A DNA stretch of 63,007 nucleotides, filler included, from Lenisia limosa (lineage: Eukaryota; Protista; Breviatea), in NCBI GenBank assembly GCA_001655205.1. It is 8 parts of 8 records of this genome, joined end to end, with 100 filler letters (N's around TTAATTAATTAA, not from the genome) between each part and the next. Parts side by side here need not be neighbours in the genome. Positions count along the whole stretch, not along the records: positions 6,106 to 22,267 come from LPNZ01000673.1; positions 22,368 to 31,066 come from LPNZ01009930.1; positions 31,167 to 49,356 come from LPNZ01009245.1; positions 49,457 to 50,941 come from LPNZ01010337.1; positions 51,042 to 60,264 come from LPNZ01010104.1; 3 more parts are not named here. One strand, given 5' to 3'. The position numbers and the translations under genes were made by a program. Shown piece after piece: positions 2,681 to 52,400 of the stretch (its first letter is position 1; each line of letters begins with the position of its first letter). A model generated the notes under the pieces. That model ran no database searches. It had not been told where the DNA came from and saw nothing but the letters and a program-made list of their open reading frames with translations.

Positions 2681-2729
2681 AGTGGGTGGGGCACATACAC
2701 ACCTGTATTAGGAAAGCCATATAGCTAAT

Positions 2730-6998: not shown

Positions 6999-9900
6999 AT
7001 GTCCTCCCCCGATCTGAAGAGGGGTAGTGATGACCCAGACTTTGAGGGTGAAAAGCGGAAGAAGAGTAGAGACATCGTTGTTAAAAAGGCTGAAAATATC
7101 ATTGATTATGAGACAGAGTCTATCAAAAGCACGTCTCCAGAGGTTGGCTGGCACCTAATTAACGGAGGAAGTCTATTGTGATTTGTTCAGGTTTCACTCG
7201 TGACGACTTTATAGTTTTTCATTAATTACATCAGGATCAATCATTTGAAATCAGTGAGGCGAGCCCTCCCACATTCCCCCAGCAAATGAGCAATTCAGAG
7301 GACCGCATCGGCATCCCCCCGTCGTCACCTTCTTCCGAGCCCACGTCCTCACAACAGTCCTCAGCTTCTTCAGGTGGATTATGATGATCATTTCTATTGC
7401 CACTTAAAAACTTTTTAATAACTTAATTTACAATGGAAAGTTTTGCTGATGAAATACTATACGTGTATAATCATGTTGAATAATGAAATGCATTTATTTT
7501 GATAAGCTTGAATGGTTCTCTGATATAATTGTATTTTTTTTGTCAGATTCTGTTGTTAGTGTGATTAAGACTGTCAATCTTTTGTAGTGGTTAGATAGCC
7601 TTGGTCACTAAATGATTATAAGGTTGTATTACCTCCAGTCCTTTCAACTGTATTTCTATTGGTATTATACCAAGTAATGCCATATCTCATTGCTGGTACT
7701 GGGTTTATTTCCTAGTGTCCATCAGCCACCCGACAGACACCCTTCTGGACTTCTTTGCGCGCTCCGGCCGCCAGCCCTGCCCTGCCCATATCCCACATCC
7801 GTTGAGGTGAGGGCTCTTGCTTGTTAGTATTACTGCTTCCTTATTTTTTGGAGGAGATATTCATTACTCTGATGCGGTGCTGCAGAAGCGATTGGCCTTG
7901 GCTTTATGTTGTTGTCAACCCTTGTGTGTTGTCAGCGAACAGAGTTGATTTGGGCTTTTTTTTTTTTTAGTTCATAAATTTTCCAATTTACCCCTCCCCC
8001 CGCAGGAAAACAGCGGATATTCCTGGTTTGCCCCGAATGTTCCAGAGGATGCGTGATCAAGGCCAGTCACCCGTCCCAGCTCTCAACGATATCGGCATCA
8101 ACCTGGTATGAAATTGGCCTTAAAGCTAATCCAGAAACTGGTTCGGATCAACTCTATAGTAGCATATGATATGTACACGCATATACCGAGTGTGACCTAC
8201 GTTATTGTGTAGTGTAATAAAGCAGTTATTCTTTGACATAGTATGAGATCAAATGTTGTGAATAACTATTAACCAAAGTCTTTATTTGAGTAAAAAGTAG
8301 TTAAAATGATGATATTGCTGAAACATTTTACTTTACTTGTTTTTTCAGTGTTTGTTTCTCTGCAACTTACCTTCAGAACCCTATTTTCGAGTCCACCATG
8401 CCAGATGATGACCTTTGGAATATCTTGGCTATTGCACTCAAAAACCAGTGCCTTCGAAGTATGTTAGGTTGATATTAGTCAGACATTTTCCGGATTTGAT
8501 TTTGCATCTGCTGTGGCATCTCTACGTGAGAATTTTATAGTGGTATGGTGTATTGCTGCTATTTATCAAATGGGTTAAATTATATCAATGATGAAGGAAT
8601 GACTTTGCAGCTCTCCTTCGGCTCCCGCGGCTCCGTAATGAAAACTACGAGAGCTTTTTAGACGCTGTGGAGTTAGTTAGGACCGCCAAGCGAATTATTG
8701 TCCTTTCAGGCGCTGGAGTGGGGGGTGTAAGCGAAGGACATTTCTATGATAAATAGTGATGGTTATCTCAAGAACTTTTCTTTTCTGATCTCGTTATAGA
8801 TTTCGGTATCATGCGGAATTCCCGATTTCCGCTCTGAGAATGGTCTTTATAAAAGAATCAGAGAAGACTACCCCGATTTAGCTGAACCTGAAGAGAGTAT
8901 GATTTTGAAATATCTTCCGAATGGTGCAGGATGCATTCTTTCAACTCTGAAAACATTGTCTTTTGACCTTTCAGTGTTTGACATTCACTACTTCCGTCAG
9001 AATCCAAAGCCGTTTTTTGAGCTTGCCAAGGTAGGTGACTGTTTTCTCACTCAAAATTTTCAATTGCTTTGTTCAATCGTTCTTTGACAAGCAGTGATCA
9101 TTGGTAATTTGTCAGGAGCTCTTCCCTGGTAACTTCACCCCATCTTACTCCCACCGTTTCATAAAAGCGCTACAAAATAGGTCAAAACTCCTCAGAAACT
9201 AGTTGGGGGCGATCTTTGAGGTTCTATGTTGTGCATACCCATTTAAAGAAAGTACATATGATATAATATAGTGCATACCTATGATATTGAATTGTTTTAT
9301 TTGAAAGTAGTACAAGTCATCCAACCGATAACGACATCATCGGATTCACCTTTGAATCATTTTTTGGATATTTATAACCCTCGCAGTACACAAAATATTG
9401 ATACACTGGAGTCGGTGTGTGGTGTGACAAGAGCGATTCAGTGCCATGGGTCTTTTGCTACGGCAACATGTCTCCAGTGTGGCTACCAAGGTATTTGGGG
9501 GGTCTTTTGTGAAATGAAAGCAGGGTTCCATTTAATCCGAAAAGGGAAAGCAAAGTATGGATGTTCTTCAGGAATTCTTTTGTTTATCGTGGGGAAATCG
9601 GGACATCTTCCAATAGCATTGGGATATTCAATTAGCAGTACGTGTTGTTTAATTGAGAGATTTCACGATTTAGTCCCATGCGATACCATCAGAGAACAGG
9701 TGATGAACCAAGAGCTTCCTCTTTGTCCAAAATGCGAGGAATTGAAACCTGGTATTGCCCAAGCCCTCCAGCAGTTAATTAAAGAGCACCAGAACAATGA
9801 AGGGCTTCTTTCGAGTGGGAAATCGTTTCTTCATTGGCAACACAGTGTTCTCTATCGTAACATCTTGATTTATATTTGGCAGCAATTTTACGCTTTAGAA

Positions 9901-11537
9901 TCTGCCCCCCTTGCAGACATCGCTGAAATGGAGAATTTCCTCAGCTCCCAAGCCATTCTCAAACCGGACATTGTTGTAAGCAAAAGCCCTACTTTGTCGT
10001 GGCGAGTATTCAAATCTTTATTCCACAGTTCTTCCATGAATCACTTCCCAAGTCCTTTGATCAGATCATGCATGACGCACCAGAGGTATATTTGGATCAA
10101 ATTGCATTTGCTTCTGTATTGTGAAGTGTTCACCCCATTAGGCTGACCTTTTGATCGTGATGGGCTCTTCCTTAAAGGTCCAGCCTGTTTCCGAAGTTCC
10201 AAGTTTGTGCCTTGAGTATTTCTTTGTGTTTTAATGTCCGTTTCAGCGCTGATTCCCTCACACATTCCCCAAATTCTCATTAACCGTGAACCACTCCCGC
10301 ATATGACTTTCGACATTGAGTTGCTAGGTTTGGAAGCTGCAGCGTTTTGTAATGTTGTTCACATGTGGAGTAGTGATATTACAAACAACCATAAATTGAC
10401 TTATTCGATTTGACCGAATAGGAAATGCTGATGTCATTGTAAAGCACTTATTGGCGTCTTTGGAATGGGAGTTTCCCCCAGCCATGGCCAATGGAGGGCT
10501 CATTGAGAGCATTACAGACCCTACGCGGCCGATGTCATCAGTGCCGTCACCGCTTTCAAGCCCTGATAGTCTGCCGTCCAAGCTGCTGAGTCCAATTGCG
10601 TCACCTGACCTTGTCAAAGAAGAGAACAACGAAAATACTGAGGTTTTTGAGGTAATTAAAGAAGAATTGAAAGAGGAGGAGGACGTGAAAGATGAAGAGG
10701 TAAAAGATAACGAAGATGAGGTGAACAAAGAGTTGGATTCAGAACTATTCCTTGATGAAAGTGACCAAATAAATGAGAAATCGACAATGACCGTTGATGA
10801 TGGTGCAAGTGGCGATAGTGCGTCAGATTACTCGGAATCGGGAAGTATTGTGCCCGATGCTCCAATGGATGCGGAAACCTTCGTCTCCATTCCCCCTAAC
10901 CGCTGCCTGTTTCAGGTACAGTGTGCTTTTTTTTTTGACCAGTTTGGAGTGAGTGTTTTTGCAAACTCTTTGATGCCCTGAGTCCTGGCAACTTCTTTCG
11001 CGACCATTTTGACCTCGTAGGGTGGGCTCATTGACGGACACGATGCTTCCGATGACAGCTCTCAGTCCGATGATGAATTCGAGGACATGATGGATGTGGA
11101 TATCTCTGATCAGCTCCCCCAAGAAGCCGCACAACTGCCTCTGCCTAATAAAGATATTATCAAGACCATAGATTTAGCCATCACAGATAGTCGACCGGGG
11201 TTGAACTCCCCTAAGGGCTGTATGGCGTCACCGAAGGCCTCTCCTGAGGTTGGTTACTCAAATATGATAGGTCTTGAACTGAAGTGACACACAAGCTGAC
11301 TTTACAGACCTCTGGTAAAACTGAAGAAACAGCCCATTTCCTTCAGCCGTCGACACCCATCCGCCCGGAAGTATGTATTTTTGGTATTGTAATGAGTTAA
11401 CCTTTTAGAATCTGTGGATGGACAATGAGAAAATACATGCGGGAGAAAGCCCCGTTTCTGCGTCTTTAAGGCTACCGAAATCCGAGGTATACTCCGTTGT
11501 ATTCCACCACGTCCTTCGCCATCCTTCTCTTAACTGA
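6999..11537 (+). CDS. SIR2: NAD-dependent deacetylase sirtuin, class I (Sir2/SIRT1-like), ~18 exons
   Basis: Spliced core: IIVLSGAG|ISVSCGIPDFRSENGLY, MFDIHYFRQNPKPFFELAK, KLLRNYTQNIDTLE, QCHGSFATATCLQC...CPKC, KPDIVFFHESLP, DLLIVMGSSLKVQPV, PQILINREPL. Long acidic C-terminal tail. 3' end uncertain. Confidence 0.95.
7921..8005 (+). repeat. Intron-3'-end repeat family C, copy ending sirtuin intron 7807-8005
   Basis: TGTGTGTTGTCAGCGAACAGAGTTGATTTGGGCTTTTT..TTCATAAATTTTCCAATTTACCCCTCCCCCCGCAG|GAAAACAGCG. Splicing gives an open HPL-R-KTADIPG junction. Confidence 0.85.
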
Positions 11538-11883
11538 TTTCCAGCCCTTTTCGCCACGATCTGATCTTTTTGATCTTGGTAACGAGAAGTGGGCCTTTTC
11601 TCCTGCCTCACGATCAGCGCCTCCGTCCCCCTTGTCTCCCATGTCGCCTTCCTCAGAATCAATGCTCTTCTCATAGGTAATTTGGGATGAGATTTGTCGC
11701 ATGATGAACGTAAAAATGAGAACAATAAAAAAGGAGCATTATATCCTGGACATTATCTCATTAAAATAGGTGGATGAGCTCATGTATGTTAGTTCTGTTC
11801 TTTTCTTTCTTTTATGGTATTGTACAGTGGTAGATGCTTTGATATTTCCTGGCTCTTCTCCACCCTGAATGACCAAGAACAGT

Positions 11884-13821
11884 TCAGGCGTTGATAGATG
11901 CATAGTGCGCGGGAATAGCAACCCACTTCATCCCAATGTCGGGCATTACCTAAAACGTTAGAGGGGTAGTACATAAGGCTCATCCGCTCACATATCCAGC
12001 AGTATTTTGAGAAGACGCAACAAAGCCAGTTGATGAAGAAGACTCAATAGCTGAATGTTAATAGATCCCCGGTTGCCTTACATATTTGCCAGCCGTTACC
12101 AGTTGCGATAGACATCGCGAAGATCAGTGGAGGAGCATCAAAGGATTCATCAAACGTCACAGAATACGTAATATGACCCTTGAAGGTCAAACGTTTTTTT
12201 GTAATCAAACAAGACCCCACAAACAACTGTTGACAAGTCAGCTGTTCCAGTTTGGGTCTTTTCAGGTAAGTAGTTCTCCGTAAAGCACACAACAGTCACC
12301 TCTCCACTAAGTGCGTCAATAGGATATTTCCCAAAACAATTATTTCCAAAGTGTACAAAAGTCACACTCACTGGTTAGGGTACCTCCAGGGGGTAAACGC
12401 GGTGGTTGTGGAATATTCCTTGAACCGAACCTAAATAAAGAATCAAAAGACTATCATCACTGTATCATATGATATGATCCATACCCACTCTAATTGATTC
12501 CGTTATGAAGTCATCAAAGACAGGCGAAATGAGGCATGTTGGTGCAACAGGTAAGGCCGTAATTGAGTAAGTATTAGCCCCTAGAAATATATAAAAAATA
12601 AAAGAATTAATTGAAATTAATTGAAAGGACTACCAATTAAAGAGTAAGAAGGTGATAAATATTTACAATTCCTACAACTTCAACATCATGGGGTGTATAT
12701 CATAGACATACACTCTTATCCCGTATTAATCACCCACCAGTGAGCGTTTTTGACCAGTTCTACAATAGTGAGAACGAAACAAGAATTACACCATACTCTC
12801 ATTGATGGGCAAAAGTTTGCATTGCTTTTTTCAGGCACCACCATGATGTCGTAGTGGCTGGCAATGTCAGTCTCCTCCATGTTTTTGAGGACAGTCATAA
12901 TGAAGAAGCCATTAGCTGTGATGTTCACTGGAACACTGAAGACTGGTGTTGGTGTGTACGCAGTCACGTAAACCTGTGACGGTTATAACCAACATAGCAT
13001 ATCAGACGTATATAATATATCGATCATATCCAGTATACTATATATACATATTATACAATATAGTATGAAAATAAAATTGTGCTTCAATCCAGAAAAAAAC
13101 TGCATCAGAGCCATTCAAGAAGTAAGGCCGCCAAACACCATTCAAACCTGTGGAACTTCAGTGTAGCCTGTCAATGGAACATAGGTTCGCGACCCCGTGG
13201 ACACCTACAAATGAACCACAGGTACTGTCTTATAATAGGTAGGTTATTCGAAGGACACGAAAAGATCTTACACCCTCTCTCAGCTTACCACAGAAAGAAA
13301 CTCTGGTACAGGGCACGAAGCACTTCTTACACTCTGGTGGAAAGAATCCCGTTGGGACTCTTTGAGTACAGACTGTAACGTTAAATAGAGTGCAACTATT
13401 GTGAACTCACCGTTCGATAGAGAGCAAATTGTTCTTCAATGTATTTCTGCGTTGTGATTTTTCGTCTGAAAAAAAGGAAAAAAAAACCGTAGTAGTAGCC
13501 TACCAGGTTGACAAGATCATCATTTTCCGAGGGAGCAATTCCAGACCTTGCAAGTGAAAAAAACCAATCATCACTCTGTCATCCGACACCCCTAACCATA
13601 ATTTTACCACTGCATACCTCAGCAATAAATTAGCTGTTATAGCCTGATCTGTCACATGAAATGTTTGGCTAAATCATGAGTTTCAGCCAGGAGGCGTATA
13701 ATACTCTAGGTTTGCGGATATATATTTTCACCAAGTTCCATATCGGATACTCTTCTTACCTTTTTACAAATAATATGTTGCAAAAAGCAATCAGAGAGAA
13801 CAGCGTGAAGAGAAGAGGCAT
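11884..13821 (-). CDS. Putative secreted protein with C-terminal H-type-lectin-like motif
   Basis: Signal-like MPLLFTLFSLIAFCNILFVK. Exons YTPTPVFSVPVNITANGFFIMTV, YSVTFDESFDAPPLIFAMSIA, SSSTGFVASS and MKWVAIP* follow the V.F...F..PP / tGF / WVAI pattern. Phases are not fully reconciled. Confidence 0.4.
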
Positions 13822-14094: not shown

Positions 14095-15919
<1,825 letters not shown>

Positions 15920-28498: not shown

Positions 28499-31047
28499 TC
28501 AGCGAGCAGGAATAGGACCAGACCAGAATGGCCCAAAACAGGAAGCGAGCCACCTCATCAACAAACATGACTGGTAATTCAACTATTAAACAACATAACA
28601 TAACAAGACCCAATTTACAACGGGGGATATAACATAGTACACTCTACATAGAGGGGACAGGAGTCAGCATTGCAACCCTAAAACGTCAGTAATTAATAGT
28701 ACATGTATCGATATGTACATATCATATAGAGATGAAAATTAAATTAGGTTGTATCTGGCCGAAGCCGTCNNNNNNNNNNNNNNNNNNNNNNNNNNNNNNN
28801 NNNNNNNNNNNNNNNNNNNNNNNNNNNNNNNNNNNNNNNNNNNNNNNNNNNNNNNNNNNNNNNNNNNNCTAGTATAAAGTATACTAAACAAAATATAACC
28901 CTAAGGAATCTAAAGGAATTTAAAGAAAATATAATACAAATTAATAATAAGGATTTCCTTCCAAGATGTAATCCAAAGAAATCTATAGGAACTTAAGGAG
29001 AATATAATCAAAAGGAATTATAAAACAAAATAGAATCCTAAGGAAATATGTATAGCAACCCTAGAACGTTGGTGGTTTGCTTTTTATAAAATAATATGAA
29101 CGTTTCTCTCTCTCCCCCTCTCTCTATCCCAATACCACCCCCCCCCCACTTCCCACCTATTCATATTCAATTCCGCCTCGAGAGAAGGCGATGTCCGGGG
29201 ACTTTGTCTGTCCTCCAGGAAATACGTGTTCTGGAGGGGGGGAGGGGATGTCAAAAAACAACAACAACACAAAAACAGACCAGTAAAAATGAACAAAATA
29301 AAGTTGAATAATAATAATGTCAACTATCATATGTGAATGATATGATAGTATAGAAAGAATATTGAATACACCCCCCACCATTTTGCCTTTACCCTTGATT
29401 TGGATAGGGCCGCGAGCAGAGAAACGGAAATACCCGGGTGCTGCAGGGATGAAAAGGGGCAGTTTTATGGAAAATTAAAGAAACATGTAGCCACCCAGCT
29501 AGCCCCCCACATGTCTGCTTCTCGGCATAGCTCTTGGCATTTTCAGACACGTTGATTTTGAGAGGTTCGGATGTGGTCTCCATGCGACTCGCAACATTGA
29601 CAGAATCGCCAACCAGACAGTAGCGTGCTCTTAGATCGCCTGGGGGAGGGATGGTAAAATGGCAAAATTGATGAAACAAAAAAAGCCCAAAATAATCTCT
29701 GTTGGCTGACAACATACGAGAGTTGATAATAACANNNNNNNNNNNNNNNNNNNNNNNNNNNNNNNNNNNNNNNNNNNNNNNNNNNNNNNNNNNNNNNNNN
29801 NNNNNNNNNNNNNNNNNNNNNNNNNNNNNNNNNNCTTATCACCCTCCCTACCAATGACACTAGCAACAACTGGACCCGAATGAATGCCGATTCGCACCTC
29901 AATTCCGTCCTGGAGGAGGGGGGTAAAAGGGAAAACTTATAAACAAAAAAAGAGACTCAACTCTGTAGGGGAATAGAACACCTCCACATTTTTCGGAAGC
30001 ATGGTAATTGTTTACTGCAACCCTATGTATTGGTTTGTTTAGGTATGCTGGGGAGGCACGCAGAAAGCTGTGTGTACAGAGTTGTAAGGCAAATGATTGN
30101 NNNNNNNNNNNNNNNNNNNNNNNNNNNNNNNNNNNNNNNNNNNNNNNNNNNNNNNNNNNNNNNNNNNNNNNNNNNNNNNNNNNNNNNNNNNNNNNNNNNN
30201 NNNNNNNNNNNNNNNNNNNNNNNNNNNNNNNNNNNNNNNNNNNNNNNNNNNNNNNNNNNNNNNNNNNNNNNNNNNNNNNNNNNNNNNNNNNNNNNNNNNN
30301 NNNNNNNNNNNNNNTCTGGATTTTTAATACAGTATAATATTATATCTTGTCCAAGAAAACCCACGTTTTTCCTTTGGTCGGTGTGGATGGTGAAGCTTTG
30401 TGTTTCTTCCACCATATCCAGGGCCATTTCAAAGATAGACGAAGCGTGGTTGAGGCTGGGAGGCACACGGCCATCTCTGCAGAGGTTACAATGAAAATTG
30501 AGTATTATGTAAAAATAGAGTAATATTGATAATTTTATAAATATTATGGGGGGGGGGGGCGAATTACAATGATAAATACGGGGAACTTCCCAAAACTTCA
30601 AACCCTACTGCGCATCGACTTGCGATTTCCTGTTATTATTTGGGAATCCCATAAATTTCTTCGAATTTCCATAAAATTACATGGGATTCCCATTAAAATA
30701 CTGGAATTCCAACGTTTTCACAAGACTCCCAAGTCGATGCGCCGTAGTAAAATAAGCCTTTCAAAACCCATCAAAATATCTTTCCAAAAACCTTACAGCC
30801 TTATTAAAAAATAACACTATAAAATCCTTCAGAAACCTACTCAAGAATGTCGTGCTCGGAGTACTCAATGCCACCCACGGCCATATAGGCATCTGAAATA
30901 CGTCAGTTCAGTTCAGTTCATTTTCAGTTCAATTTCTTCAACGCTGGTACACTATAATCAATATCCCTTAAAACTGCTATATCAATATCTTGATAAAGTA
31001 CTCCCCAGCCCACCCCCGATAGTTTCGACCTTAAAGGTGCCCCGTCT
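28499..31047 (-). CDS. Class III nucleotide cyclase, guanylyl-type, C-terminal catalytic part
   Basis: Spliced: FKVETIG|[40 protein letters not shown]|[32 protein letters not shown]|NTYFL. The 5' part is lost at a linker. Confidence 0.9.
29640..29730 (-). repeat. Intron-3'-end repeat family C, copy in cyclase intron 29640-29851
   Basis: TGTTGTCAGCCAACAGAGATTATTTTGGGCTTTTTTTGTTTCATCAATTTTGCCATTTTACCATCCCTCCCCCAG|GCGATCTA. Confidence 0.85.
29910..29970 (-). repeat. Intron-3'-end repeat family C, copy in cyclase intron
   Basis: ACAGAGTTGAGTCTCTTTTTTTGTTTATAAGTTTTCCCTTTTACCCCCCTCCTCCAG|GACGGAATT. Confidence 0.75.
30043..30099 (+). repeat. Repeat family B, inverted partial copy
   Basis: GTATGCTGGGGAGGCACGCAGAAAGCTGTGTGTACAGAGTTGTAAGGCAAATGATTG, then a gap. 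Confidence 0.8.
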
Positions 31048-31189: not shown

Positions 31190-34100
31190 TCAACAACAGA
31201 TAGAGCCTACCTTTCTGGGAGTCTGAGCGGAGCTTGAGCCGTCACCATGACTCTGGGATATTACAATCGGGGTGGATAATCCATAATATACAATCCAAGA
31301 AATTGCAAAATAATAATTGCACACAGTCGGAGTGCAAACTACAGCATTCAGAATAAATGATATGAAGGATCTATCGACACTCAGTTTTAGAAATCCCTGG
31401 TTCAATCAAGAGTGTATCCACATCAAACCCAATAGCAAAATGAGCAAATTAAGTACTCATGAACATCAGTCACCCCACCCCCACCACGAAACTCATGGAC
31501 TTGATAAGCATCTCAGCGAAGAACCAGAACTGAGACACAACGTTGTTGATACTCGGGTCGGACTTAGAGGACGTCACCTCCACCAGGTGCTTGGCGAGAA
31601 TCTCGTGGAACGGCTCGCGGGCTGTCGAGTGAGGGGAGAGGGGGAATAATGAAACAAAAAGCCCAAATCAACTCTATTGGCTAACAACACACAAGGATTG
31701 ACTGGTAAAAATGGGGAAATGATGAAACAAACAAAAAAAAACACAAAGTTTGAAAATAACAAAAAACAACCCAGGTAAGTCGCTTCTGTAGCACCGCATT
31801 TGATTTTCAGGAGACATGTGCAAATACAAAAAAAAACACAAAAAGAACTCATGGATTTGGAAAGAAGTGTATGAAAATAATGTTACACAATGGTGGCTCA
31901 CTTGAAGATGGGGGAGTGAAAACTCTCTTGAGGAAAGTGTAGAGGAAGTGGTTGCGCGTTTGGCCGTCAGAAACAGCAGAAACAATCCTGCAGAAAGTTA
32001 ACACTGTTGGTATGAAACAATCCTTTAGTGAACAATGTTGGTATGACATATGAGACGTACACGAGGAGGTAAGCAACTCCCTTCCTCAGCCTTAGCCTAC
32101 TTGTTGACGGTGTTGGCGAGGGACCTGAAAGCAGGAAGTGAAACCTCTTCGAGATCCACCATTTCCTTGCAGAGGTAGGGCAGGACCACGTGCATGTGTT
32201 GCGTCAGCGCCACTGGCGAAGCTGAGGTACCAACGTTGTTCAGGGCCTGGGATATGGGAATAAGGAATATGATATGAGATGATGAGTATCAACAAATTAG
32301 CCACCACCCTCCTTTTGAGACATCGATTAGCCACCACCCTCCTTTTGAAACATCGAATAGTATGGATGGTTCTATGATTGTAGGAGCTCATCTTCATGCT
32401 TTTGTGGCATGCTGGTAACGGTTGTAGACACACCATCACACATAAAGGATCTCAGTACCTCCCCACATTGGTGATTTTCTTTACATCTCTGCCCGAGTCT
32501 TCGGTCGTCATTTCAGAGAGGACGGTGATGCAGTGGTCAGTGGGGTACACCGAGGACATGAGACGCGACGNNNNNNNNNNNNNNNNNNNNNNNNNNNNNN
32601 NNNNNNNNNNNNNNNNNNNNNNNNNNNNNNNNNNNNNNNNNNNNNNNNNNNNNNNNNNNNNNNNNNNNNNNNNNNNNNNNNNNNNNNNNGGATGTGTGTG
32701 TGGGTATGTAGTTTCCTATTTGGCGTAACAAGTCCCCCATGCATAGCAGTTTATCTGAGTCCCCCATGCATACCAGCTTATCTGCATCAATGAATTTGAC
32801 ATCGTTGTTGACGAGATAGTACTCGGGTAGTTCGGAAGCCACATTGAGGTTCATGCTAAACAGGGATGATGGTTTTTATAATAAAAAAACAAATAAAAAA
32901 GATCAAGATTTTGATGAAATAGATTATTGAGGTGAAAAATAATAGGATATCTGGCAGAAGCCGTTCACACTATGATAAGATATATTGGAAAATAATATAA
33001 TAATAGTTTCACCCAGCCATTTGCCTTTCAACTCAGTGTACACAACTTTCTGCGTGCCTCCTCAGAATACCCAATCATACCAGTGATAAAGAAGAGGTCA
33101 ACAGTACCCACTACCCACTGTAAATCGCCGGTGATGCGGTCGCCCTTGTACACGGGAAGGAACGCGTAGCCAATCAGTGCCTCTGCTTTCTGGGAGAGTT
33201 AGCAACAAATGACACACAGTAACGTCTACTGTGAGAACACGATATTTTCATTTTCCCAATCATNNNNNNNNNNNNNNNNNNNNNNNNNNNNNNNNNNNNN
33301 NNNNNNNNNNNNNNNNNNNNNNNNNNNNNNNNNNNNNNNNNNNNNNNNNNNNNNNNNNNNNNNNNNNNNNNNNNNNNNNNNNNNNNNNNNNNNNNNNNNN
33401 NNNNNNNNNNNNNNNNNNNNNNNNNNNNNNNNNNNNNNNNNNNNNNNNNNNNNNNNNNNNNNNNNNNNNNNNNNNNNNNNNNNNNNGCAGGGAGAACTAT
33501 TTTGATTTCGTCACCAAACTGCAGTTGTAAGGAAATTGACTCATTTCGAAAACAATGCCCAAAAAGACTGAAAACTTGGTTCACATAATAAGCACGCAGG
33601 AAATAATAAGGCTAGCCAAGAATCATAAAAAGAGGAAGATGGAGATGTGAGAAATATCCCATTTCACGCACCATAGGGTTTCTGTTGTGATATGTGACAG
33701 TGGAGGTGACCGAAGTGACCAGGCTTTCGGTAGTGGAGTTTCCGTAGATAACCTGTTGGATGAGTTACAGTGTCAAAAGGTACAAACGCTATGACTCCGG
33801 GGAAATATCGAGAATTTGGAAGGATCTATTTGCACAAGAGGAACATAAGCAGCTATTTACAAACCTGGAGTGGCGGGGTGTCGACGTTGGAATCGTCATC
33901 CTTGAACTCGACCTTATACGCAATGTTACGCAACTAAACTGTCAGCCAACTGCTTAACAATCCAAAAATATCAACTCCATTAACATCTAAGAAAAACTTC
34001 CAACGTCCGAATGGATCACTACAGACAAACATAGCAATATGACCTTCAGGCGAATATAAACCGTACCTTCTTGTTCTTGCTGAGATTGATGCTCTCAGGG

Positions 34101-38109: not shown

Positions 38110-39190
38110 ATGACAGTTTGGGAGTATCTGTATCCACTGGGCAACTTATCTCCGACACACCTTGACGTTATTGGCTATGGAGCCTTCTGTTTTGGATTAA
38201 TTTTCGCTCTGTCATATCTATTCTTCTCCAAATTCCAGTTTTACCAAAAACTGAGTGCAAATGACCAGATGGACTGGTGCTCACGGTAGTCAGGGATGTT
38301 CTAGGCCTTAATATTTGCTCATTGCAGTTGGAATATTTTTGGAGGCGAGGTTATTTTTGAAAACGCCGCTTCTGACACGCATAGAATTTGCTCAACGGTC
38401 CACTGCATTGTTGTTGTTCCGCTGATTGTCAACCTTCTTCTGCAAGATGACTACAACCCCCATCCCCTCTTCGACCAGGACATTCGCTCCGAAGTCATCA
38501 TGTGCATTTCAATTTCGTAGGCGGTACAATGTCAATGCTGATCCCTCTAGATACTTCTTGATAGACTTGCTTGTAATCCTTTGCTTCCGCATTGAACCGG
38601 TAGCTCTTATCGGCGTCCATCATATCATGTCTGGCCATGGCTTCATTTTGATTACCGTGAGAGAGGGGGGGGGGGGTTACAGCNNNNNNNNNNNNNNNNN
38701 NNNNNNNNNNNNNNNNNNNNNNNNNNNNNNNNNNNNNNNNNNNNNNNNNNNNNNNNNNNNNNNNNNNNNNNNNNNNNNNNNACTATTGAAATTTCAGCTA
38801 CATATGCTTCTAGCTTTTCAACTACCACCAAGCGATCACGGATTACCAAAGTTTTACAAGATAATTGCCTCCATTTTGACAGACGAATGCTGGCACGAAG
38901 GAGTATCTAATATGCAAAGAGCTTAACATGACACCCTTGTAAAAATAAAAAAGTCCTTGCTTTCACCAGCAGAAATAATACATTTGGTCCGTTTTGAGGT
39001 TTAGTCCACGTTATAAGCATCAACCACGTGGCGTCTTCAATGACTGAAAAATACAATTCATATCTACACAGAAACTATCCCCGTTTTATACTTACACTGT
39101 AGTCATACGGACAGCTCCAACAGTTCGCCGTCACTTTCCTTATTAGCGAGGCAACTGGTATGTTCGGTGATATCAAGGATCTTCTATATC
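38110..39190 (+). CDS. TLC (TRAM/LAG1/CLN8) domain membrane protein, 5' exons
   Basis: N-terminal TM segment VIGYGAFCFGLIFALSYLFF, then YFLIDLLVIL..ALIGVHHIMSG (D...HH motif) and FAVTFLISEATGMF (conserved E). 3' exons unresolved. Confidence 0.55.
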
Positions 39191-40039
39191 CGTGGAGGGG
39201 GGGTGAGCGATGACTTAAAACTATGGCTCTTTGAAATTATTATTTTTTACACTGTCACCACCATCACACATTTTAGACACATTCACTGTAAATGAGAATG
39301 AAATCATATAATTACGAAGTTTTGTCTGTGGATTTAACTCAACTTCATAATGGCCACACAAACTCAAACAATTGTGTTGTCTTTTTTTTGTATTTCTCCT
39401 GTACATCATCTAGTATATTGTATTTGATCAACTTAACCCAGTAAGAGTATTAAAGCCGGAGTCCACTTAAATACTGTATATAAAATAATACAATTATTAT
39501 TCTGAAGTGGACAAATGTATAATTTTAAGTTTAATCGTTTAATCGTTTCCGTGAGATTATTAGCTGAATTCCTTTATCGGGCACAATAATGTCTCTGTTT
39601 TACACCACTTTGTGAAATCATCTAAATGAATGGAATTTAGCAGTTTCTCTGGATGATTTTATGAAAACTATCTTGTTATATTATGCTAATACTCAGAAAA
39701 CGACAAAATATTAATGTTTTCCAATTCTCTTGGAGTTGACTCAGAAAAGTGCATATTTTATTCATGGAAAAGCGGGCTCAGATAAATGCCAAAGAGGCCC
39801 AAAGATATACTCCCAGCAACCTCAAAATAAGAGTATAGTTGAAGAGGCAAACCCAAGACAATGACATTGACTGATTCTGGTGTAATAAACGTCAACTCTC
39901 CGGATTGATATGAAAAGTTAAGAAAATGATATTTCTTTCCCCTAGATAGCAACGAGATTTCAAAAAAAATTGTTTTCGTAATTTAAGTGGACTCCCGCTT
40001 TAAGTTTAATATTTTTGTATTGGGAAACCAACCTTGTTG

Positions 40040-40390: not shown

Positions 40391-41250
40391 GTGGGGAGGG
40401 GGGTAAAAAGCCAAGCATAACCAAGTTTATTACGGGCTATTCTTTGCTAGTCATGAGCGCTTGAAAATATTCTTCGTGAAGCCTTATCTTCTTCTTATCG
40501 TGGATCTCATTTGACTGCACATGTTTCCCTTGATATACTAATATTCTAGATCAAATGATCGCCACCATCATCTTCCTTGGCGCTATTAATATTGTCAACT
40601 TCTTCCTTGTGTCTCTGGACTTGAGATCCCTCATCGTGCGGAGGAGGGAGTTGCTTTCTGGAAAGAAGAAACTCTGATTTAAATTTTACTGATTTGTGTT
40701 GTATTGTTCTAACTTTTTCCACTGTCATTTGCTATGGTATATATTTCTTTTTCCTTTATAGACTCTGTTCACTGTTTTTGAGGGATATGAGTTAAAGTCC
40801 ATTCAATTGCCGGTATTTCCTTGAATTTTCGAACTTCAACAGGTGAACACAATACCACAAAAGTAAAAGGGGGAAACAGAATAAATACGTATCAAAACGG
40901 AAACACTTACTATTACTAGTCCATTGCACCTCCCATCTGAAGAGATCACAATATAAGAACCGATTATTTTTGCAGTTTAGTTTAACTCGTTGTGCCAATA
41001 CACTTGTTCCCTCCAAACCATAATAGCGTCCAGTTCATGCTGGGGGATTGCCAAAGAGGGAATTCGGTCAGATCGCGTCACAGTCGTCACTATTCAGTAA
41101 ATGAAGGTATAAAACGATGTAGCCCTAATAGTGACCAAGATAAGATGTGGTACCCAAAGCAGCCACTTCCACATAACGTTGCCCTGGTTAGTTTATCATA
41201 TTGCACAGAATAATATATGATAGTATATATCTACATATGCTATTATGTAT

Positions 41251-41380
41251 AGCAATGAGAAATAAAATATAAGGTTGTGTCTGCCCGAAGCCGTCCGCAC
41301 CATTTCTAAGAGACATTGGATTACAGTATAATATATTCCCACGATCATTTGCCTTACAACTCAGTGCACACAGCTTTCTG
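41251..41380 (-). repeat. Repeat family B, copy
   Basis: AGCAATGAGAAATAAAATATAAGGTTGTGTCTGCCCGAAGCCGTCCGCACC..GATCATTTGCCTTACAACTCAGTGCACACAGCTTTCTG. Confidence 0.8.
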
Positions 41381-41939
41381 CTATTATAGTAGTAGATTAA
41401 ATGAAACATTATTCTACATTATAGCAAACCATCCCAACCGTTAACACCAAACGGCTTAGATGCTGGTGCTGGTGCTGCAGCAGTCTCTACCTGGACAGCC
41501 CTAGCAGGGTTTGAAAAAAAAANNNNNNNNNNNNNNNNNNNNNNNNNNNNNNNNNNNNNNNNNNNNNNNNNNNNNNNNNNNNNNNNNNNNNNNNNNNNNN
41601 NNNNNNNNNNNNNNNNNNNNNNNNNNNNNNNNNNNNNNNNNNNNNNNNNNNNNNAACAAAACTCTAACAGTATTTACACACTATAATATGGCGTATAATG
41701 AAATTATAACAAGTAGTATATGTATTACATGTAAGTTCATACATATATCATATTATGATTAACGATAAAATCGTGGGTCATTTTCACATGTGTGAAATCA
41801 CATTTCTCACAGTGATATAGATATGATAACCACTCATGTGGTAACTGACCGACGGAAACGTTGTTGTATTGCATTATAAACATTCTTGTAATGCTGATAT
41901 GTATCGAAATGATTTAACACGAGGGTCGATTTTGAGTGT

Positions 41940-44900: not shown

Positions 44901-45220
44901 TCAAACGTTTATTTCGCTCATCATTTGTAGTTCAAAACTCAGTGACATGATATCCCAGCATATTGACAGCTTTGTCATGAAGGGAAGGAAATGTTTGCGG
45001 CTCTCTACGTGGAATTTGTGGATATAAATTATTGAAACTAATAATTGTAGATTTCACTCTTGAGTCAGAGTCATTATTCAGTAGGTGGTTTATAACAACT
45101 ACAAGATTTGAATTGCAATATACTATCCATAGTTTTTTTTTTCTCGTATATTCTTAAACTTTTCAGGTGAATTACTACAAATTCAGGCCGAAACTAGGTT
45201 GCATCGTATTTAAGTATTTA
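41940..45220 (+). CDS. Multi-exon gene of unknown function (helical-looking)
   Basis: Consecutive GT-AG exons RVAEMYKFNPRTLTKEEETIMEKTLEIIQ, DSIDEQMPMTISSSLELCEEE, LAAEGVRTAKAQWCPALAEC, FTFAEDSTIGLEHVSVFLGILL, RFISALADVLEICLIIANEEQK, SKLSDMISQHIDSF. 5' end uncertain. Confidence 0.6.
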
Positions 45221-45247
45221 TTTGTAAACTATCTTGTTGTGAAATAT

Positions 45248-48200
45248 TTAAACTGATCTCAGAATTGCCCAGGGAGGTTGTACAAACAACAATTGTAAAT
45301 ACCTTTCTTTGTACATTAACAACACACTGAATCTACCACCATGGCATCCACCCTTCGTACATAGTCTTGAGCTTTTCAGGGTCTTTGGCGCAGCAAATGA
45401 GATCGTAGACCTAGGGGTGCTTGTGACAAACAGTCTGTTTAAAGCATGAAATTGAGGGTAAATTTGATTGGTACTCACACTAAATATGGAAGATAATAGA
45501 CCTATTATTGGTGGTGGTATACCCCCCACATCATCAGCCACGGTTTCAGGATCAGCAGATCGTCTCAGGAAGTCGTCAATATGCTCCAGAGTCTCCATCA
45601 CAGACTTGAGTGCTACATTCATGAGGCATGGGCTATGTTGGCATGGTTTAAATACAAGACGATGCAAAAGTATCATGATATCAAGACCTTTGATTTTATG
45701 AAATGATGAGGATGAGAGGGCTCAGGAGCTTTTAGACTCACCTCCCTTGAGAATTGGCTTCGACGAATCTTCCTGTTCTTCAACAAACGCTTCGTCAGCA
45801 CATTCGATATCACTCACTAGGGGGAGGGGGGGAGTAAAATTGGAAAATTTATGAAAAAAAAAGAAGCCCAAAATCAACTCTGTTGGCTGACAACACAAAG
45901 GTGTGGGTGTACAGAATGTTCTGTGACGTATTAGATGTGGAGAGAGAGAGTCCTGTGAAAACATGAGTAGTACTGTTACAATGATGTGTAGAGAGAGGGT
46001 GAGTATATGATATATATATGGTGTTTCAGTGGAAGGCACTATATCCTGATTAATAAGCTCATGATTAATAAGCTCATGATGCCCCTGATTAATAAGCTCC
46101 TCATTGATACGGAAACGTGCCTGTCAAAGTCACCCAGCCCACAGTCATCCGAATCGTCATCGCTCATCGCAGCGGCGGTGGGAGTTTCAACTTCGTCATG
46201 GGAATTTTGGCCAAGACCGGCACGACCAAGAGATTCGACTGCGGAGAGGGTGGATGCTACCCGAGTTCTGGGGTGGTGAGGAGGATGCGTATGGGTGAAG
46301 GTTGGAGGAGTGTGTGTAATAGTTACAGCTAAAAGTCAAATATTAATCCTGTTGTCTCGACGCAAATGAAGTGCTTACCTGAACCCTCTGAGAAGCTTGG
46401 TGCCGGAGCCGGAAGGACCTTCAGAACTGTTTTGGTAAGAGACACTGCGACCTTTTATCAAAGATACGTGCGTTCATCAAGGATTATGGAGGAATTCAAA
46501 TTCTGCCAGTATGACGTGTCGTAGTCATTTTGATCTCCTTGAAATTCGCACCAGAAAACGTGAATTAGTCCTCTTTTATGGATTATGGGTAGTACCTTTA
46601 CGCCAATATTCTTCATTGGAATTTCCTGCGCCCCTTCCCACCCGCGAAGTCTCTTCAGGGCAGCCGCGATGTCGTCACAAGCCCCAGGCCGGGCAGACGC
46701 TTCGAAGTTCAGTCGCGCACTGGGGGGAACGCCGGCACTACAGAGGGTTCGGTCAAGGATGGCAGAGATTTGCTGACACGCTGTAGAGGCGGCTCGGGCT
46801 CTNNNNNNNNNNNNNNNNNNNNNNNNNNNNNNNNNNNNNNNNNNNNNNNNNNNNNNNNNNNNGGGGAGTTCAGCTTCAGCCCAAAAGGGAATGCAATACT
46901 GGTGTTGTCTGGAATGATGGAGCACTTTGGCTCGTAAGACACAAATTAACTGGTGATGTTTTGATTTATCGAGGTAGCTTGTCACTCAAGAACCGAAATG
47001 AAGCCCTATCAATGGAGAACCAACTTTTGCTAGTAAGAAGAGACGGTCGTCAGTTGGAGCGAGTTGCAGCTCCGCATCTCCCGAGTGGGCAATTCTATTG
47101 GGAATAAGCGAAGACTACAATGGAGTTTCAACAGGGATGGCAAAAGGAGCCACAAGACAATACCATCATCTGCTACACAGTCTGAAATAGTCCGCACGGG
47201 TTCCCACGATAGTTCAGCACAGACGGTGGTGAGATAGCTCATTTGCGACATCATGCCCCGGGCAATCCTGAGCACTGATATTGTGGAGGTAGCAATGGTG
47301 GTGGCGGCCGGGAGGGGAGCGCTGGGGGGGGGGGNNNNNNNNNNNNNNNNNNNNNNNNNNNNNNNNNNNNNNNNNNNNNNNNNNNNNNNNNNNNNNNNNN
47401 NNNNNNNNNNNNNNNNNNNNNTGGAACGGTCTGTATGAATGGGAACAAATGCAATACATATAACCCTACTAGACTAGTTTCTGAATGTTGCTGATCAGCT
47501 TACGAATCAAGGATGCTTTGGGCCTCTCTTTGTCTCCTTTTCAGCTCGTTCAATGCTCGTGTATTCTCTGAGTGGAGCAGCTTTTCATGCTGTTTGGCTG
47601 CGGGAATAAGTTGTTGAGAACAAGCTAATAGAGATTAAATAACATCAAGGGGTATGATGGTATTATGGCAGAGCCATCAAAGAGTCCCATTTCAGTATAA
47701 AAGTGACCAAAACTTAGATTTCATCAGAAATAATCATATAATTCGATGATGTCTTGTGAACCCATACCCTTTCTCAGTCCAAGCCCCTCTGTACCTTCAC
47801 GTAGGCCAGTTTCTGTATCTTCACTTTGGGCGTCCCTCATATCATCAAGAGCCTGGAGAGGGGGGGGGGGGGNNNNNNNNNNNNNNNNNNNNNNNNNNNN
47901 NNNNNNNNNNNNNNNNNNNNNNNNNNNNNNNNNNNNNNNNNNNNNNNNNNNNNNNNNNNNNNNNNNNNNNNNNNNNNNNNNNNNNNNNNNNNNNNNNNNN
48001 NTTCTGCAGCGCCGCATTCCGTAACTCGTGAAAACCGCTCATAGCATTATTAACGAGAGATTCAAAAAAGACAAGAAAAATATTAATGTTCTTGAGTTGA
48101 AGATAAATAAAAAATAAATAAGAAGGCCCCCCACCTGAACGAACTTGGTGATGACCGGAGTGGCTTTGGTTGAGAGGAGGTCGGAAGTGCTCAGAGTGTG

Positions 48201-49340
48201 GACAGTTGTCACGGATTCGCCTATCTTGACCAGAAATTGCAGCGAGCTGGGGGCGTAAATAATAGTAATAATAAAAACAAACAAACAAAAAAAAACAGAA
48301 TCTAATGAAAGCAGAACTCTTTTAGTTATATGTAAGTTTAAGACACAGTAAAACTCCACACCACCAATATCCTAATTATCCTGACATGTGCAGCTTTTTT
48401 TTACTATCATTTGAATGGAAAGAAGAGAAAATATATCCTTTAGACATGTTAGAATAATAACAAGGACCCGCACCTTTTGAGCTGTTCGAGACGCTGTTTG
48501 TTCATTCTGAGGGCCTTGCGCATGACATCTGAGGTGCGGCCCTTTCCGGCAAGTCGAAGCTCTTTCTGGACCTATTGGGGGGGGGGGGGGNNNNNNNNNN
48601 NNNNNNNNNNNNNNNNNNNNNNNNNNNNNNNNNNNNNNNNNNNNNNNTATTCGTTCAGCTTTCGATAACCTTTATTATCAGGTTATTAAGCTTTTCATAT
48701 CTGCAACACTTTAATCGTCATAAGCGCCATTTTAGAGCCCATTGAACCTACATTGACAAAAGCCTTGTCTAAGAGAGAGTTGAATACATCGATGTCTGCA
48801 ACAAGTGCCTTTGTAGGGGCTATCAGGCTGGGGGGGGGGGNNNNNNNNNNNNNNNNNNNNNNNNNNNNNNNCGTTCGCATCACTATGGAAAAAAACCTTA
48901 TACAAAAGTACCTTAAAAAGAGCATCCTCAGAGCTTCCAGAAACAAACCACAAAAATGACCAACAAACAACCTACTTCTGTATCCTTGAGACCTGTCGTG
49001 ACCAAATGGCGAGGTGACTTTGAACCCATTCAGGGAGCTGTGATGGTTGGTTAGTTGAGGGAATAGCTATTGGTCATGGTCACCAATGGTGAGAATGTCA
49101 AATGCATAATTATTAAGATTGAAAACCATTATTACTATACCCATATGAGAGGCTATTGACTGGAGTGAAGTCTGTTCACTGTAACATGGAGCTATTAAAA
49201 CAAAAGACTGAAATGTTTTGGTAGCATAAAGCCATGTTGATACTGAGTACCGCCGACCAAGTGGGCAATCGGAAGGAGAAGCGATGCTCTCGACCAAATC
49301 AGCGCCGAGACATCTGGCGTGTCCTATGCGGGTCAAAGCT
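45248..49340 (-). CDS. Large multi-exon gene, 3' part, unknown function (weak resemblance to FHIP/FAM160 C-terminus)
   Basis: Exons SLIAPTKALVADIDVFNSLLDKAF, VQKELRLAGKGRTSDVMRKAL, LQALDDMRDAQSEDTE, VSDIECADEAFVEE and GLDIMILLHRLVFKPCQHSPCLMNVALKSVMETLEH, most with poly-C acceptors. Coding status is good; family identity is weak. Confidence 0.55.
45817..45903 (-). repeat. Intron-3'-end repeat family C, copy in intron 45817-46110
   Basis: TTTGTGTTGTCAGCCAACAGAGTTGATTTTGGGCTTCTTTTTTTTCATAAATTTTCCAATTTTACTCCCCCCTCCCCCTAG|TGAGTGAT. Confidence 0.9.
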
Positions 49341-49456
49341 AATGGGGGGGGGGGGCNNNNNNNNNNNNNNNNNNNNNNNNNNNNNNNNNNNNNNNNNNNN
49401 TTAATTAATTAANNNNNNNNNNNNNNNNNNNNNNNNNNNNNNNNNNNNNNNNNNNN

Positions 49457-52400
49457 TAAACTTGGTCAACTATTCAAAGAAGCCGAACTTGCTCTGAAAA
49501 AGGTTAGTATTGCTTTTCAACATGGCCAGTTTACCATTCTAGCTGATCGAAGATGAAAAAATCAATAGGAAAGCATACGAAAATATCATTGAAACCATTG
49601 TGAAGCACCTCCATGACATTACACCTGAAGTGAAACTCAAGAGAGACCGGATTCTTTTCTTTGATGAAATCGCATGGATGAAATCAAAATGGGAAGGAGT
49701 CAAGGGTGAACCCTTGGTTTCGCCCATTCGCATTTGTAGTCTTTCTGGAGAAGTGGTCGAGTCAGCAATTGTGGCTGGAGGGCACAACTACTATGACAAA
49801 GCAGTGAAAGCCAATGAAATGACAATGAAGAAAAAGAAGAAACAATCAAAAAGGTCATCTGTTTCAACTGGTGATAAAATTTGTGATGGTTTTGCAAACT
49901 GGATGGCAGATCACCCCCCATCTGACACTGATAGAATGGAAGCTCCCTCTCAAAGCGCTATGAAGCACAATATGCATCATATTGGAGTTACAAAGAGCGC
50001 ATTCTTTTCAGTGGAGGGATTTCTCAAGACACTTTCAATTATTCAAAGTAACCATATTCGGATGGTTGGTGATTCTGCAAGGATTCACACTGCGGCAGAG
50101 GTAAGNNNNNNNNNNTTCTCAAAGAGCAGTTGAAAGTGCTATGAAGCACAATATGCATCATATTGGAGTTACAAAGAGCGCATTCTTTTCAGTGGAGGGA
50201 TTTCTCAAGACACTTTCAATTATTCAAGTCCAAGTAACCATATTCGGATGGTTGGTGATTCTGCAAGGATTCACACTGCGGCAGAGGTAAGAAGCTAACA
50301 CTTATTCGCCTTAACCAAGTTTTCTCAACTCGTTTTAGGTCGCAGCAAATGCGTTCACAACGTATGGTATTATTTTAACGACAGAACCCGCCTCAACATC
50401 CCATTTCCTCCAGGTTTGATAGTGATAATGAGGTGGATTATTGTGAATTATCTTCGCTCATTTTTAAGGTTGCGGACTCCTACTATCATGTCTTTGTTAA
50501 TCGTGAGCTGACTCGATTGATTAATGAATACCTTGTCTCCCAAAAAATACGTTTGCTGGGTTATGGTGACGACAATACAAGAAATGGCTCCAATATACTG
50601 CNNNNNNNNNNCCTCATTTTTTAAGGTTGCGGACTCCTACTATCATGTCTTTGTTAATCATGAGCTGACTCGATTGATTAATGAATACCTTGTCTCCCAA
50701 AAAAATACGTTTGCTGGGTTATGGTGACGACAATACAAGAAATGGCTCCAATATACTGCTCTGACAGTTCAGAGAAATGGATGTGTCGGTTGCAGTTGAA
50801 ATTGGTGCGAAAGCACTGAGATCTCCAAGCTACTCTATTGTATGTGCATCGCTTCTATCATGTGGATATACTCCTGATGGTTATGAACCACATAAAATCT
50901 CAAGTAGTGTTTATAACAAAGGAGCACTCTTCCGCCCCCTTNNNNNNNNNNNNNNNNNNNNNNNNNNNNNNNNNNNNNNNNNNNNTTAATTAATTAANNN
51001 NNNNNNNNNNNNNNNNNNNNNNNNNNNNNNNNNNNNNNNNNTTACTTATCTTGATGTCACCGTTATGAACCCGAGCTTTACCAATCATTGGAATCCTCCT
51101 CGATATTATCAAGGTACAAAATGACTTGGAGCCTCTAAGGTTTGCCGTCAGAAGCTTTCCTGACTTTGGCTCACTCGCTATTGAGGAGAAAATCTCGTCT
51201 TCATATTCTCTTGCTGAGGACAAAGGCGTTCTACGTTATCTTTCTGAGTCCACCGTAGCTTATGTTGTTAACGTAAGAAGGCAACTATTTGTATTCACTG
51301 TTGCTGAGTACCCTTTTTTGGCTTTTCATGTTCACTAATTGATTAGGTGAAACGTAAACAAGTTTCATAGTATAAGCATGGGGCTGTGAAGCGAAGACCT
51401 GGGTGTGCAACATACTCCATCCTGATATTGACGACCATTTTCTGCGACTTGTCTTGGAGCGTATTGTCCGTGGCGAGAACCCGAACACCACCGAGTTGAG
51501 AGAGATGGTGGGAGGGGGGGGGGGTAAATTTACATGTTCATTCTGTTTNNNNNNNNNNNNNNNNNNNNNNNNNNNNNNNNNNNNNNNNNNNNNNNNNNNN
51601 NNNNNNNNNNNNNNNNNNNNNNNNNNNNNNNNNNNNNNNNNNNNNNNNNNNNNNNNNNNNNNNNNNTTTATTACTGCACCAGCCCTGACATTGATTTAAT
51701 GAAAAACAGTAGTTTACAGCATATGTTGTGTAAATCATCAGAGAAAATATAATGAGACTAAAAAACAATCATAAAAAAACAAGAGCACACCAATATACAG
51801 AAATGCGAGAGGGGATCCCCTGTAAATACTCTCGGAGGGCATCTTCATCTATAAAATCGTAAGCTACGATAAAGAAGCGAAGGAGATGTTTTGATGGGAA
51901 CAGCTGGATTGTAGATGTGATGAAGGGAGACTCTAGTTTTGGAAACATTAAAGATACAGTTGGTATAACACTTTAAGATAACAAGAACACACTGAAAGAG
52001 GATAAGGGATTTCACCTAGAGCAAGGTAAAAATTACTACTTCTCTCTCTATGCCTGCATAAAGTAGATAAAGAAGTGTACTTTTAAAATCTGAAAGCCAT
52101 TTTCAAAACTGCATTTACTGTGACGACTTTTTGCCAAAAATCTCTCAAGGTGACTGAACCACCTTAAAAGGAGATTAGCTGCCTGCCTGTGCATTTTTAG
52201 CCTTTAAATATGAAGTTCACGCTCTTTTGAGACGTCAAGGACTTGCCAAGAACAGAAGCAGCAGCAATCTCCTGCTCCCACCTCCGAGCAGCGACTTCGC
52301 CCTGGCCCTCATCAAGTAGTTAAAAGTTCGCCAATATTGTCAGATAAGCAATGTACTCGATACACATCAATAATGCCGAAATCATTCTCACTTTCAGAAC

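Follow-up and report, generated by a model that had tools for sequence, protein, structure and literature searches.

G-rich 5′ and C-rich 3′ intron flanks are already known from vertebrates, where introns carrying (GGG)m-(CCC)n in humans, together with the (AC)m-(GT)n introns of fish, are described as bridged introns whose two tracts co-occur and stabilize the intron fold (Lin et al. 2016, PMC4691745). G triplets and G-runs downstream of vertebrate 5′ splice sites are also described as intronic enhancers bound by hnRNP F/H (PMC1326234). A fixed distance between branch point and AG is reported from intron-poor lineages (Irimia and Roy 2008, PMC2483917; Giardia and Trichomonas, PMC6679479), with variable 3′ ends in all intron-rich species studied there, and introners are called only where copies are alike up to both intron boundaries (Gozashti et al. 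2025, PMC12130899; Roy et al. 10.1101/2020.10.14.339549). Our literature searches listed no paper on homopolymer G- or C-run intron ends in a protist or on an acceptor-targeting repeat, though such cases may have a bearing in Supplemental Table 3 of PMC4691745 and in Dataset S2 of PMC12130899. The subject of this report is a 63,007-nucleotide (nt) stretch of DNA from the breviate Lenisia limosa (assembly GCA_001655205.1; hereafter the window), for which a sequence-only reading had described introns bracketed by a G-run after GT and a C-run before AG, and had explained them either as relic terminal inverted repeats (TIRs) of an intron-generating transposon or as selected G:C end-pairing or G-run enhancers. 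We favor, with moderate confidence, an account in which the two runs are independent, length-linked splice-site features, accompanied by a repeat, family C, that is anchored at acceptors.

All counts refer to this one window and its modeled set of 106 GT-AG introns (median length 113 nt) in 12 genes, or ~9 introns per gene. With a run defined as at least four G within 16 nt after GT, or at least four C within 16 nt before AG, G-runs stand at the 5′ end of 19 of the 106 introns against 10 of 596 interior windows (p=3e-10), and C-runs at the 3′ end of 22 against 8 of 596 (p=2e-13), while the reverse arrangement is absent, no intron having a C-run at its 5′ end or a G-run at its 3′ end. All ten sense G-runs of at least 6 nt in modeled introns begin no more than 39 nt from the donor, nine of them no more than 8 nt, and 11 of the 13 sense C-runs of that size finish no more than 12 nt from AG. 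The runs at intron ends are polarized by strand, and long G and C runs work as polarized splice-site markers in this genome. Both the G count (rho 0.41) and the C count (rho 0.39) rise with intron length (p ~1e-5), interior G and C being flat.

The motifs picked out by the sequence-only reading are present at, or no more than ~11 nt from, where it had placed them, and several coordinates shift. In open-frame models an intron begins at seven of its nine donors (8718, 9202, 14932, 29378, 29851, 38657 and 40391), and 51508 is a likely donor that, because of a gap, has no scorable acceptor; the remaining one, 39192/39193, lies 35 nt inside modeled intron 39158-40090 and is not a donor in the model. 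The choice of frame at that intron follows what we take to be a TLC-domain motif, a search of Pfam and of representatives having found none. The acceptors lie near their proposed places and are corrected to 47322, 47853, 48572, 48828 and 49339.

8718..8727 (+), sirtuin intron 8718-8799, donor with a G-run, no C-run at its acceptor (SIRT1 residue contiguity)
9202..9209 (+), G-run donor of sirtuin intron 9202-9386 (gene model)
14932..14946 (+), G11-run donor of SAHH intron 14932-15002, acceptor without a C-run (gap-free SAHH alignment)
29231..29378 (−), intron of the cyclase gene, among the four that have both a G-run donor and a C-run acceptor (cyclase frame)
29640..29851 (−), cyclase-gene intron with G-rich donor, a 100-N gap and a family C 3′ end at the acceptor (cyclase frame)
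38657..38676 (+), G-run donor of intron 38657-39102, acceptor without a C-run
39193..39203 (+), G-run resembling a donor, 35 nt into intron 39158-40090
40391..40408 (+), intron 40391-40549, donor with G-run+TAAAA, no C-run at its acceptor
47322..47334 (−), C-run acceptor adjoining a gap, donor 47503 without a G-run
47853..48134 (−), G-run donor and C-run acceptor in one intron, with the upstream motif of family C seen by eye before a gap
48572..48590 (−), C-run acceptor adjoining a gap, donor 48751 without a G-run
48828..48840 (−), C-run acceptor adjoining a gap, donor without a G-run
49339..49355 (−), likely C-run acceptor, donor not scorable (gap)
51508..51531 (+), likely G-run+TAAATTT donor, acceptor not scorable (gap)

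Further long runs, at 35723-35736, 34992-35002, 42968-42980, 491-502 and 29138-29147, probably mark additional splice sites that gaps have removed or that belong to unmodeled genes.

The bracketing itself was not confirmed. Both runs occur in 4 introns, a G-run only in 15, a C-run only in 18 and neither in 69, and the 4 observed compare with 3.9 expected (Fisher p=1.0; odds ratio 1.02, 95% confidence interval (CI) 0.22-3.8), so that the runs are independent within introns on the co-occurrence check that had been proposed for them. Two of the seven scorable donors that had been named have a C-run acceptor, and two of the six scorable acceptors a G-run donor; the two DOCK introns whose G-run follows a gap lack a C-run at their likely acceptor. 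Comparing introns inside single genes or inside length classes brings out no co-occurrence either, nor does restriction to the 75 introns from conserved or RNA-touched genes (both, G only, C only and neither: 2, 11, 10 and 52; p=1.0) or a cut at two or more triplets (p=0.30). G and C counts are uncorrelated (rho 0.06, CI -0.13 to 0.24; -0.12 once length is removed). On the second proposed check, complementarity within an intron is no better than between introns, the duplex energy being -7.76 for an intron's own ends and -7.68 once the ends are permuted (p=0.39, or 0.67 when permuted inside genes and 0.66 inside length classes). A pairing across the exon, between a C-run acceptor and the next G-run donor, was also considered (90 exons; rho 0.23, p=0.03) and rejected on the within-gene (p=0.19), partial (p=0.15) and run-level (p=0.75) tests.

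At the 3′ end, a TNAY motif with its A at -8..-12 occurs in 80 of 106 introns against 19-28 of 77-94 in shifted windows, and TNAC peaks at -10 (23 introns) and -9 (21), with at most 6 elsewhere. A branch-point-like motif is therefore found at a narrow distance from AG, and from its sequence and position we infer that TNAY is the branch point. The motif stands at its usual distance in 9 of 20 C-run introns versus 71 of 84 others (p=5e-4), and in several C-run introns it is displaced to -14..-21, directly ahead of the run. Since TNAY stands ahead of it, the C-run looks like a lengthened branch-point-AG spacer; judged from sequence, it seems to be an expanded spacer, likely one that grew by slippage between a near-fixed branch point and AG. 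Constrained-branch-point systems share a branch-point-like A at a near-fixed distance from AG, but, as reported in PMC2483917 and PMC6679479, they are intron-poor with a strong consensus, whereas here there are ~9 introns per gene, TNAY is weak and the spacer is lengthened by C-runs. The unusual remainder is an intron-rich genome with near-fixed branch-point-AG spacing apparently stretched only by C-runs.

At the 5′ end, G makes up 30% of positions +6..+14 against 17.4% inside introns, and still 25% in the 87 introns without a run (p=5e-8), so that the excess is graded and not confined to a subset of insertions. It is higher in long introns (33%) than in short ones (25.5%), interior composition being flat, and the donor hexamer already holds the start of the run, GTGGG occurring in 15 of 62 long introns. 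We suggest that the G-run is likely kept as a 5′ splice-site enhancer, given the vertebrate precedent and a correlation, weak and confounded, with poor matching to U1; the G excess just downstream of donors and the link to longer introns are alike in the two systems, which differ in that the precedent is vertebrate (PMC1326234), while in this protist the run starts within the donor hexamer and no G excess is seen at the 3′ end. G-runs acting on their own fit the data, so that the G-run enhancer proposed in the sequence-only reading survives in that respect, the enhancer function being our interpretation. Such runs likely grew by slippage from GTRGG donors, and both kinds of run are commoner in longer introns, which would be expected if they help to define splice sites where an intron's length exceeds what simple intron definition can handle. 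A second GT after the G-run was also considered as a rule and dropped: T follows 10 of 19 runs, which is not distinct from 110 of 277 window-wide.

The sirtuin intron at 8718 shows that a G-run can arise on an old intron. Its donor is in use despite an in-frame GTAAG 9 nt downstream, since SIRT1 residues 34/35 of chain 4if6_A meet at the junction, and its position and phase are those of true introns, with in-frame stops, in L009, L072 and L074 (45-51% identical), three of 80 homologous loci examined, most of which are intronless. None of these three introns has a G-run. As the position is common to distant eukaryotes, the intron was not gained recently and the G-run arose on it later. Among the same 80 loci no sharing was seen for the G-run introns 9202 and 9491. 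L009 (852-1838) has two intron positions in common with the sirtuin, the equivalents of 8718 and 10203. We presume that the exon between introns 8718 and 9031 has the boundaries of mouse Sirt1 exon 4. It measures 153 nt, or 51 codons, and mouse exon 4 is likewise given 51 codons in PMC5220393.

Family C, recognized by self-comparison and profile, gives 11 profile hits at 10 places in the window, among them the following.

7871..8005 (+), longest copy, ending at acceptor 8005
45823..45910 (−), copy ending 6 nt from acceptor 45817
31620..31803 (−), two head-to-tail pieces ending at acceptor 31622, which is used by RNA contig 8
36847..36940 (−), copy ending 3 nt from acceptor 36844
29910..30017 (−), diverged copy ending at C-run acceptor 29910
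5914..5986 (−), copy ending in C-run+AG, in a candidate gene context

All six copies in modeled host introns are in sense and end 0-6 nt from AG. Family C supplies 5 of the 22 C-run acceptors; acceptor 47853, where the family C upstream motif was seen by eye before a gap, is a possible sixth case, and three further C-run acceptors adjoin gaps that could hide a copy. The host introns are alike in their last 50 nt (p=2e-16) and not in their first 50 nt (p=0.61), and no target-site duplication appears at the family C junctions, where direct repeats are no longer than in other introns (mean 1.62, n=8, against 1.37 for G-run introns and 1.77 for introns with neither). Copies likely number in the thousands: 7,046 DNA records match 31167-49356, and at site 45857 summed depth reaches 185,986 against ~35 in unique sequence, with at least 123 contigs covering the site, although none of these figures is a true copy number. 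Among the 15 of 262 DNA-contig joints listed are head-to-tail family C units that step back 71 and 35 nt. Families A and B, described below, sit inside introns, B in both orientations, unlike the acceptor-anchored family C. A Helitron identity was rejected, CTAG being found at only 1 of 8 ends. Scans with the family C pattern gave 0 hits in metagenome contigs and 0 in viral contigs, a single 21-mer match in an actinomycete metagenome-assembled genome was dismissed as chance because its flanks differ, and an Rfam search gave nothing near the gathering score. Like introners, family C is a sense repeat that reaches an intron boundary, likely in thousands of copies, but its likeness is confined to the 3′ boundary, the 5′ parts are unrelated and target-site duplication is lacking; under the rule given in PMC12130899 such cases would be filtered as secondary insertions.

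A second repeat, family D, begins at donors 46641 and 3148.

46560..46641 (−), copy of family D with its start at donor 46641, family C being absent from the acceptor of this intron
2609..3148 (−), candidate intron of an unverified gene model, its 5′ end holding family D plus an inverted C-like piece and its 3′ end family C

Behind 46627 the loose end of family D reads G-run+TAAAA after a gene-strand GT (39 DNA records, agreement 0.58), the inverse of the family C end, and among the 15 of 262 joints listed family D is joined to inverted family C in 10 contigs (three rows), the best supported of these listed joints being on opposite strands. Family C likely entered pre-existing introns at a sense-strand C-run, bringing its own TTTTAC and C-run end, and C-tailed units would stack on C-runs of either strand. 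A more ambitious version of this account, which we offer tentatively and consider less probable than its negation, is that family C is a mobile element with a C tail, that its target is the C-run separating branch point from AG, and that it has replaced the branch-point/acceptor end of thousands of pre-existing introns with its own, family D being a sister unit on the opposite strand at G-run donors. Family D landing inverted on a C-run would make some donors read as the inverse of an acceptor. Such an element would swap intron ends and not make introns, and it might do so with excised intron RNA, whose 3′ end it would copy. What sets family C apart is that it is a repeat always ending at a working acceptor, and, if it does target 3′ splice sites, intron sequence would be turned over by a route that screens for introners, as they are designed, filter out.

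The same two repeats could instead be the two ends of one TIR-type introner, D supplying the 5′ end (GT-G-run-TAAAA) and C the 3′ end (TTTTAC-C-run-AG), with other runs its decayed relics. Both families reach intron boundaries, copy number is high, as such an introner requires, the loose end of D in its 39 records is the inverse of the C end, and candidate intron 3148-2609, the one case of this kind, joins a D end to a C end; that unverified intron is also the only place where a 7-nt inverted terminal match is found. Yet none of the six modeled family C introns has D or anything common at its 5′ end, the D intron at 46641 lacks C, target-site duplication is absent and the best D-C joints lie on opposite strands. 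Introns with family C are not alike up to both boundaries, the sequences after G-runs are not alike either, and terminal inverted repeats within the same intron leave no trace as co-occurrence or energy excess. The likeness that the sequence-only reading saw between GT-G-run-TAAA donors and the inverted family C end is borne out for family C as the source of a subset of acceptors, but beyond the run donors 40391/51508 score 12/14 against that end, where the 90th percentile of controls is 15, and so resemble it no better than controls do. Because the inverse of TTTAC is GTAAA, any donor in which GTAA follows a G-run resembles an acceptor turned round, with no need for shared ancestry. Since other copies of family D do start at donors with G-run+TAAAA, a TIR-like relation between the two repeat ends may exist. 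As an account of the runs in general, the transposon-relic idea fails on co-occurrence, shared 5′ ends, target-site duplication and the ancient position of intron 8718, and we regard a D-C introner as improbable.

Of similarly low probability, in our estimate, is a neutral account without any function, in which GGG and CCC seeds, common through the splice consensus, lengthen by homopolymer slippage where deletion bias is weak. The independence of the two ends, the link to intron length and runs that start in the donor hexamer (GTGGG, as above) are what slippage would produce. However, seeds in the interior rarely lengthen as end seeds do: the ratio of runs of 5 or more to runs of 3-4 is 12:37 for G at ends versus 1:67 inside (p=1e-4), and 14:34 for C at ends versus 3:40 inside (p=0.007), which speaks against neutral slippage alone, as does the graded G excess in introns without runs.

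G:C end-pairing that bridges the intron and joins the splice sites, as proposed for introns of the (AC)m-(GT)n type and of the (GGG)m-(CCC)n type, is very unlikely here. The polarity is the one that pairing needs, G-rich after the 5′ and C-rich before the 3′ splice site as in the vertebrate introns (PMC4691745), and the minimum free energy fold of intron 29378-29231 pairs its runs. Whereas the tracts of the vertebrate introns co-occur above chance, those seen here are independent homopolymer runs abutting the splice sites, and neither co-occurrence across introns nor fold stability exceeds controls. Whole-intron folding of the 96 gap-free introns gives 3.57 expected end-to-end pairs against 3.70 with ends swapped (30 swaps), six selected introns have fold z of -0.95 to +0.56, and the centroid of 29378-29231 loses the end helix. 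Pairing would moreover be expected to mask the U1/U6 site and the branch-point-AG interval that the runs overlap. Neither end-pairing nor a TIR-type introner finds support in this window as a general rule.

A sequencing or assembly artefact, with poly-G/C placed at contig ends, accords with the 13 of 31 gaps that adjoin such runs and can be set aside, many runs (8718, 14932, 29378, 40391, 45529) lying far from gaps and being polarized by gene strand.

Several points weigh against our preferred account of two independent splice-site features and an acceptor-anchored repeat. When a single GGG and a single CCC within 40 nt suffice, the loosest cut used, p for co-occurrence is 0.035 (weakening to 0.11 in the 62 long introns), the odds-ratio interval of 0.22-3.8 leaves room for a modest excess, and in the cyclase gene four of five introns are G-rich and C-rich at both ends. 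The branch-point assignment comes from motif position. Downstream G increases as the match to the U1 consensus weakens (rho -0.28, p=0.004), a correlation that is confounded, and the exon-only part of the match gives rho -0.17 (p=0.085). An ancient position is established for a single G-run intron. The models are mostly frame- and homology-based, direct RNA support amounting to three joints and six DOCK exon ends, the longest runs have been removed by gaps, and every count comes from a single window.

The models were built with a small Viterbi parser and then edited by hand with frames kept open. The 12 genes comprise a SIRT1-like sirtuin, SAHH, CDK, eIF2B-beta-like, nucleotide-cyclase domain, DOCK-like and TLC-like membrane genes and five unnamed ones, the names CDK, eIF2B-beta-like, DOCK-like and TLC-like being our assumption from the look of the translations. 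Weak models at 336-6800, 11500-13700, 22368-23700 and 49450-52700 were excluded from the 106-intron set, together with DOCK introns having one end within a gap. The SAHH model aligns gap-free with P0004 over 439 residues, and, its best relatives being only 76-79% identical, no close relative was found. Spliced alignment with P0124, which is independent, recovers 9 of 10 sirtuin-core introns and disagrees at the 9752 acceptor; apparent introns at P0124 residues 340-354 in homologous loci were disregarded as alignment artefacts of a variable loop. Poly(A) RNA contigs supply three CT..AC joints (40936/41019, 41089/41439 and 41499/41980), and the inner ends of the DOCK pieces agree with the model, including family C acceptor 31622. 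The C-run-rich gene at 45300-49356 has 14 introns resting on open frames only, and a protein search with it gave no homologue; in a Pfam search of 16 exons the cyclase domain alone passes. Sirtuin introns 9491-9673 and 9752-9916 are 3n in length and without stops, and P0121 (9250-10140, +, 291 codons) was set aside as an open-reading-frame call that runs stop-free through three modeled sirtuin introns and carries no splicing evidence.

In composition the window is eukaryotic (~40% G+C), with 38 N stretches that make 31 gaps once linker pairs are merged. The 13 gaps that adjoin a G or C run of at least 6 nt compare with 2% of random sites, which makes the length of any run next to N unreliable and means that some ends are missing. 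At 1854-1865 and in six further places the linker TTAATTAATTAA stands between 44-N blocks and marks scaffold joins, across which order is not guaranteed. Near-identical duplicates (96-98%) at 49952-50291 and 50457-50759 flank 10-N gaps and are likely assembly artefacts.

Family A is a palindromic repeat of ~100 nt resembling a miniature inverted-repeat transposable element (MITE), with GGGCTTCAC ends and at least seven copies, one of which occupies most of intron 47020-46909.

92-186, 2084-2187, 2726-2830, 5528-5626, 46922-47008, 62130-62205 and 62464-62558, family A copies

Family B is a repeat of ~165 nt at 61273-61448 (−), found also at 2299-2471, 32903-33074 and 41245-41381, with further copies at 19290-19380, 28708-28769 and 30038-30100 and raised DNA depth. 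Its 61.4-kb copy has a 10-nt direct repeat with AG|GT on both flanks, a canonical donor start and a CAG end, and may either have inserted freshly at a donor or be a genuine introner-like copy. Other palindromic MITE-like elements lie at 5369-5443, 53241-53324, 30605-30747 and 54617-54682; the one at 53.2 kb has CAGTG ends flanked by TA and is presumably Tc1/mariner-like. The gene-poor right end carries dispersed repeats, 56118-56483/58747-59119 (84%) and 52781-52918/58525-58659 (80%).

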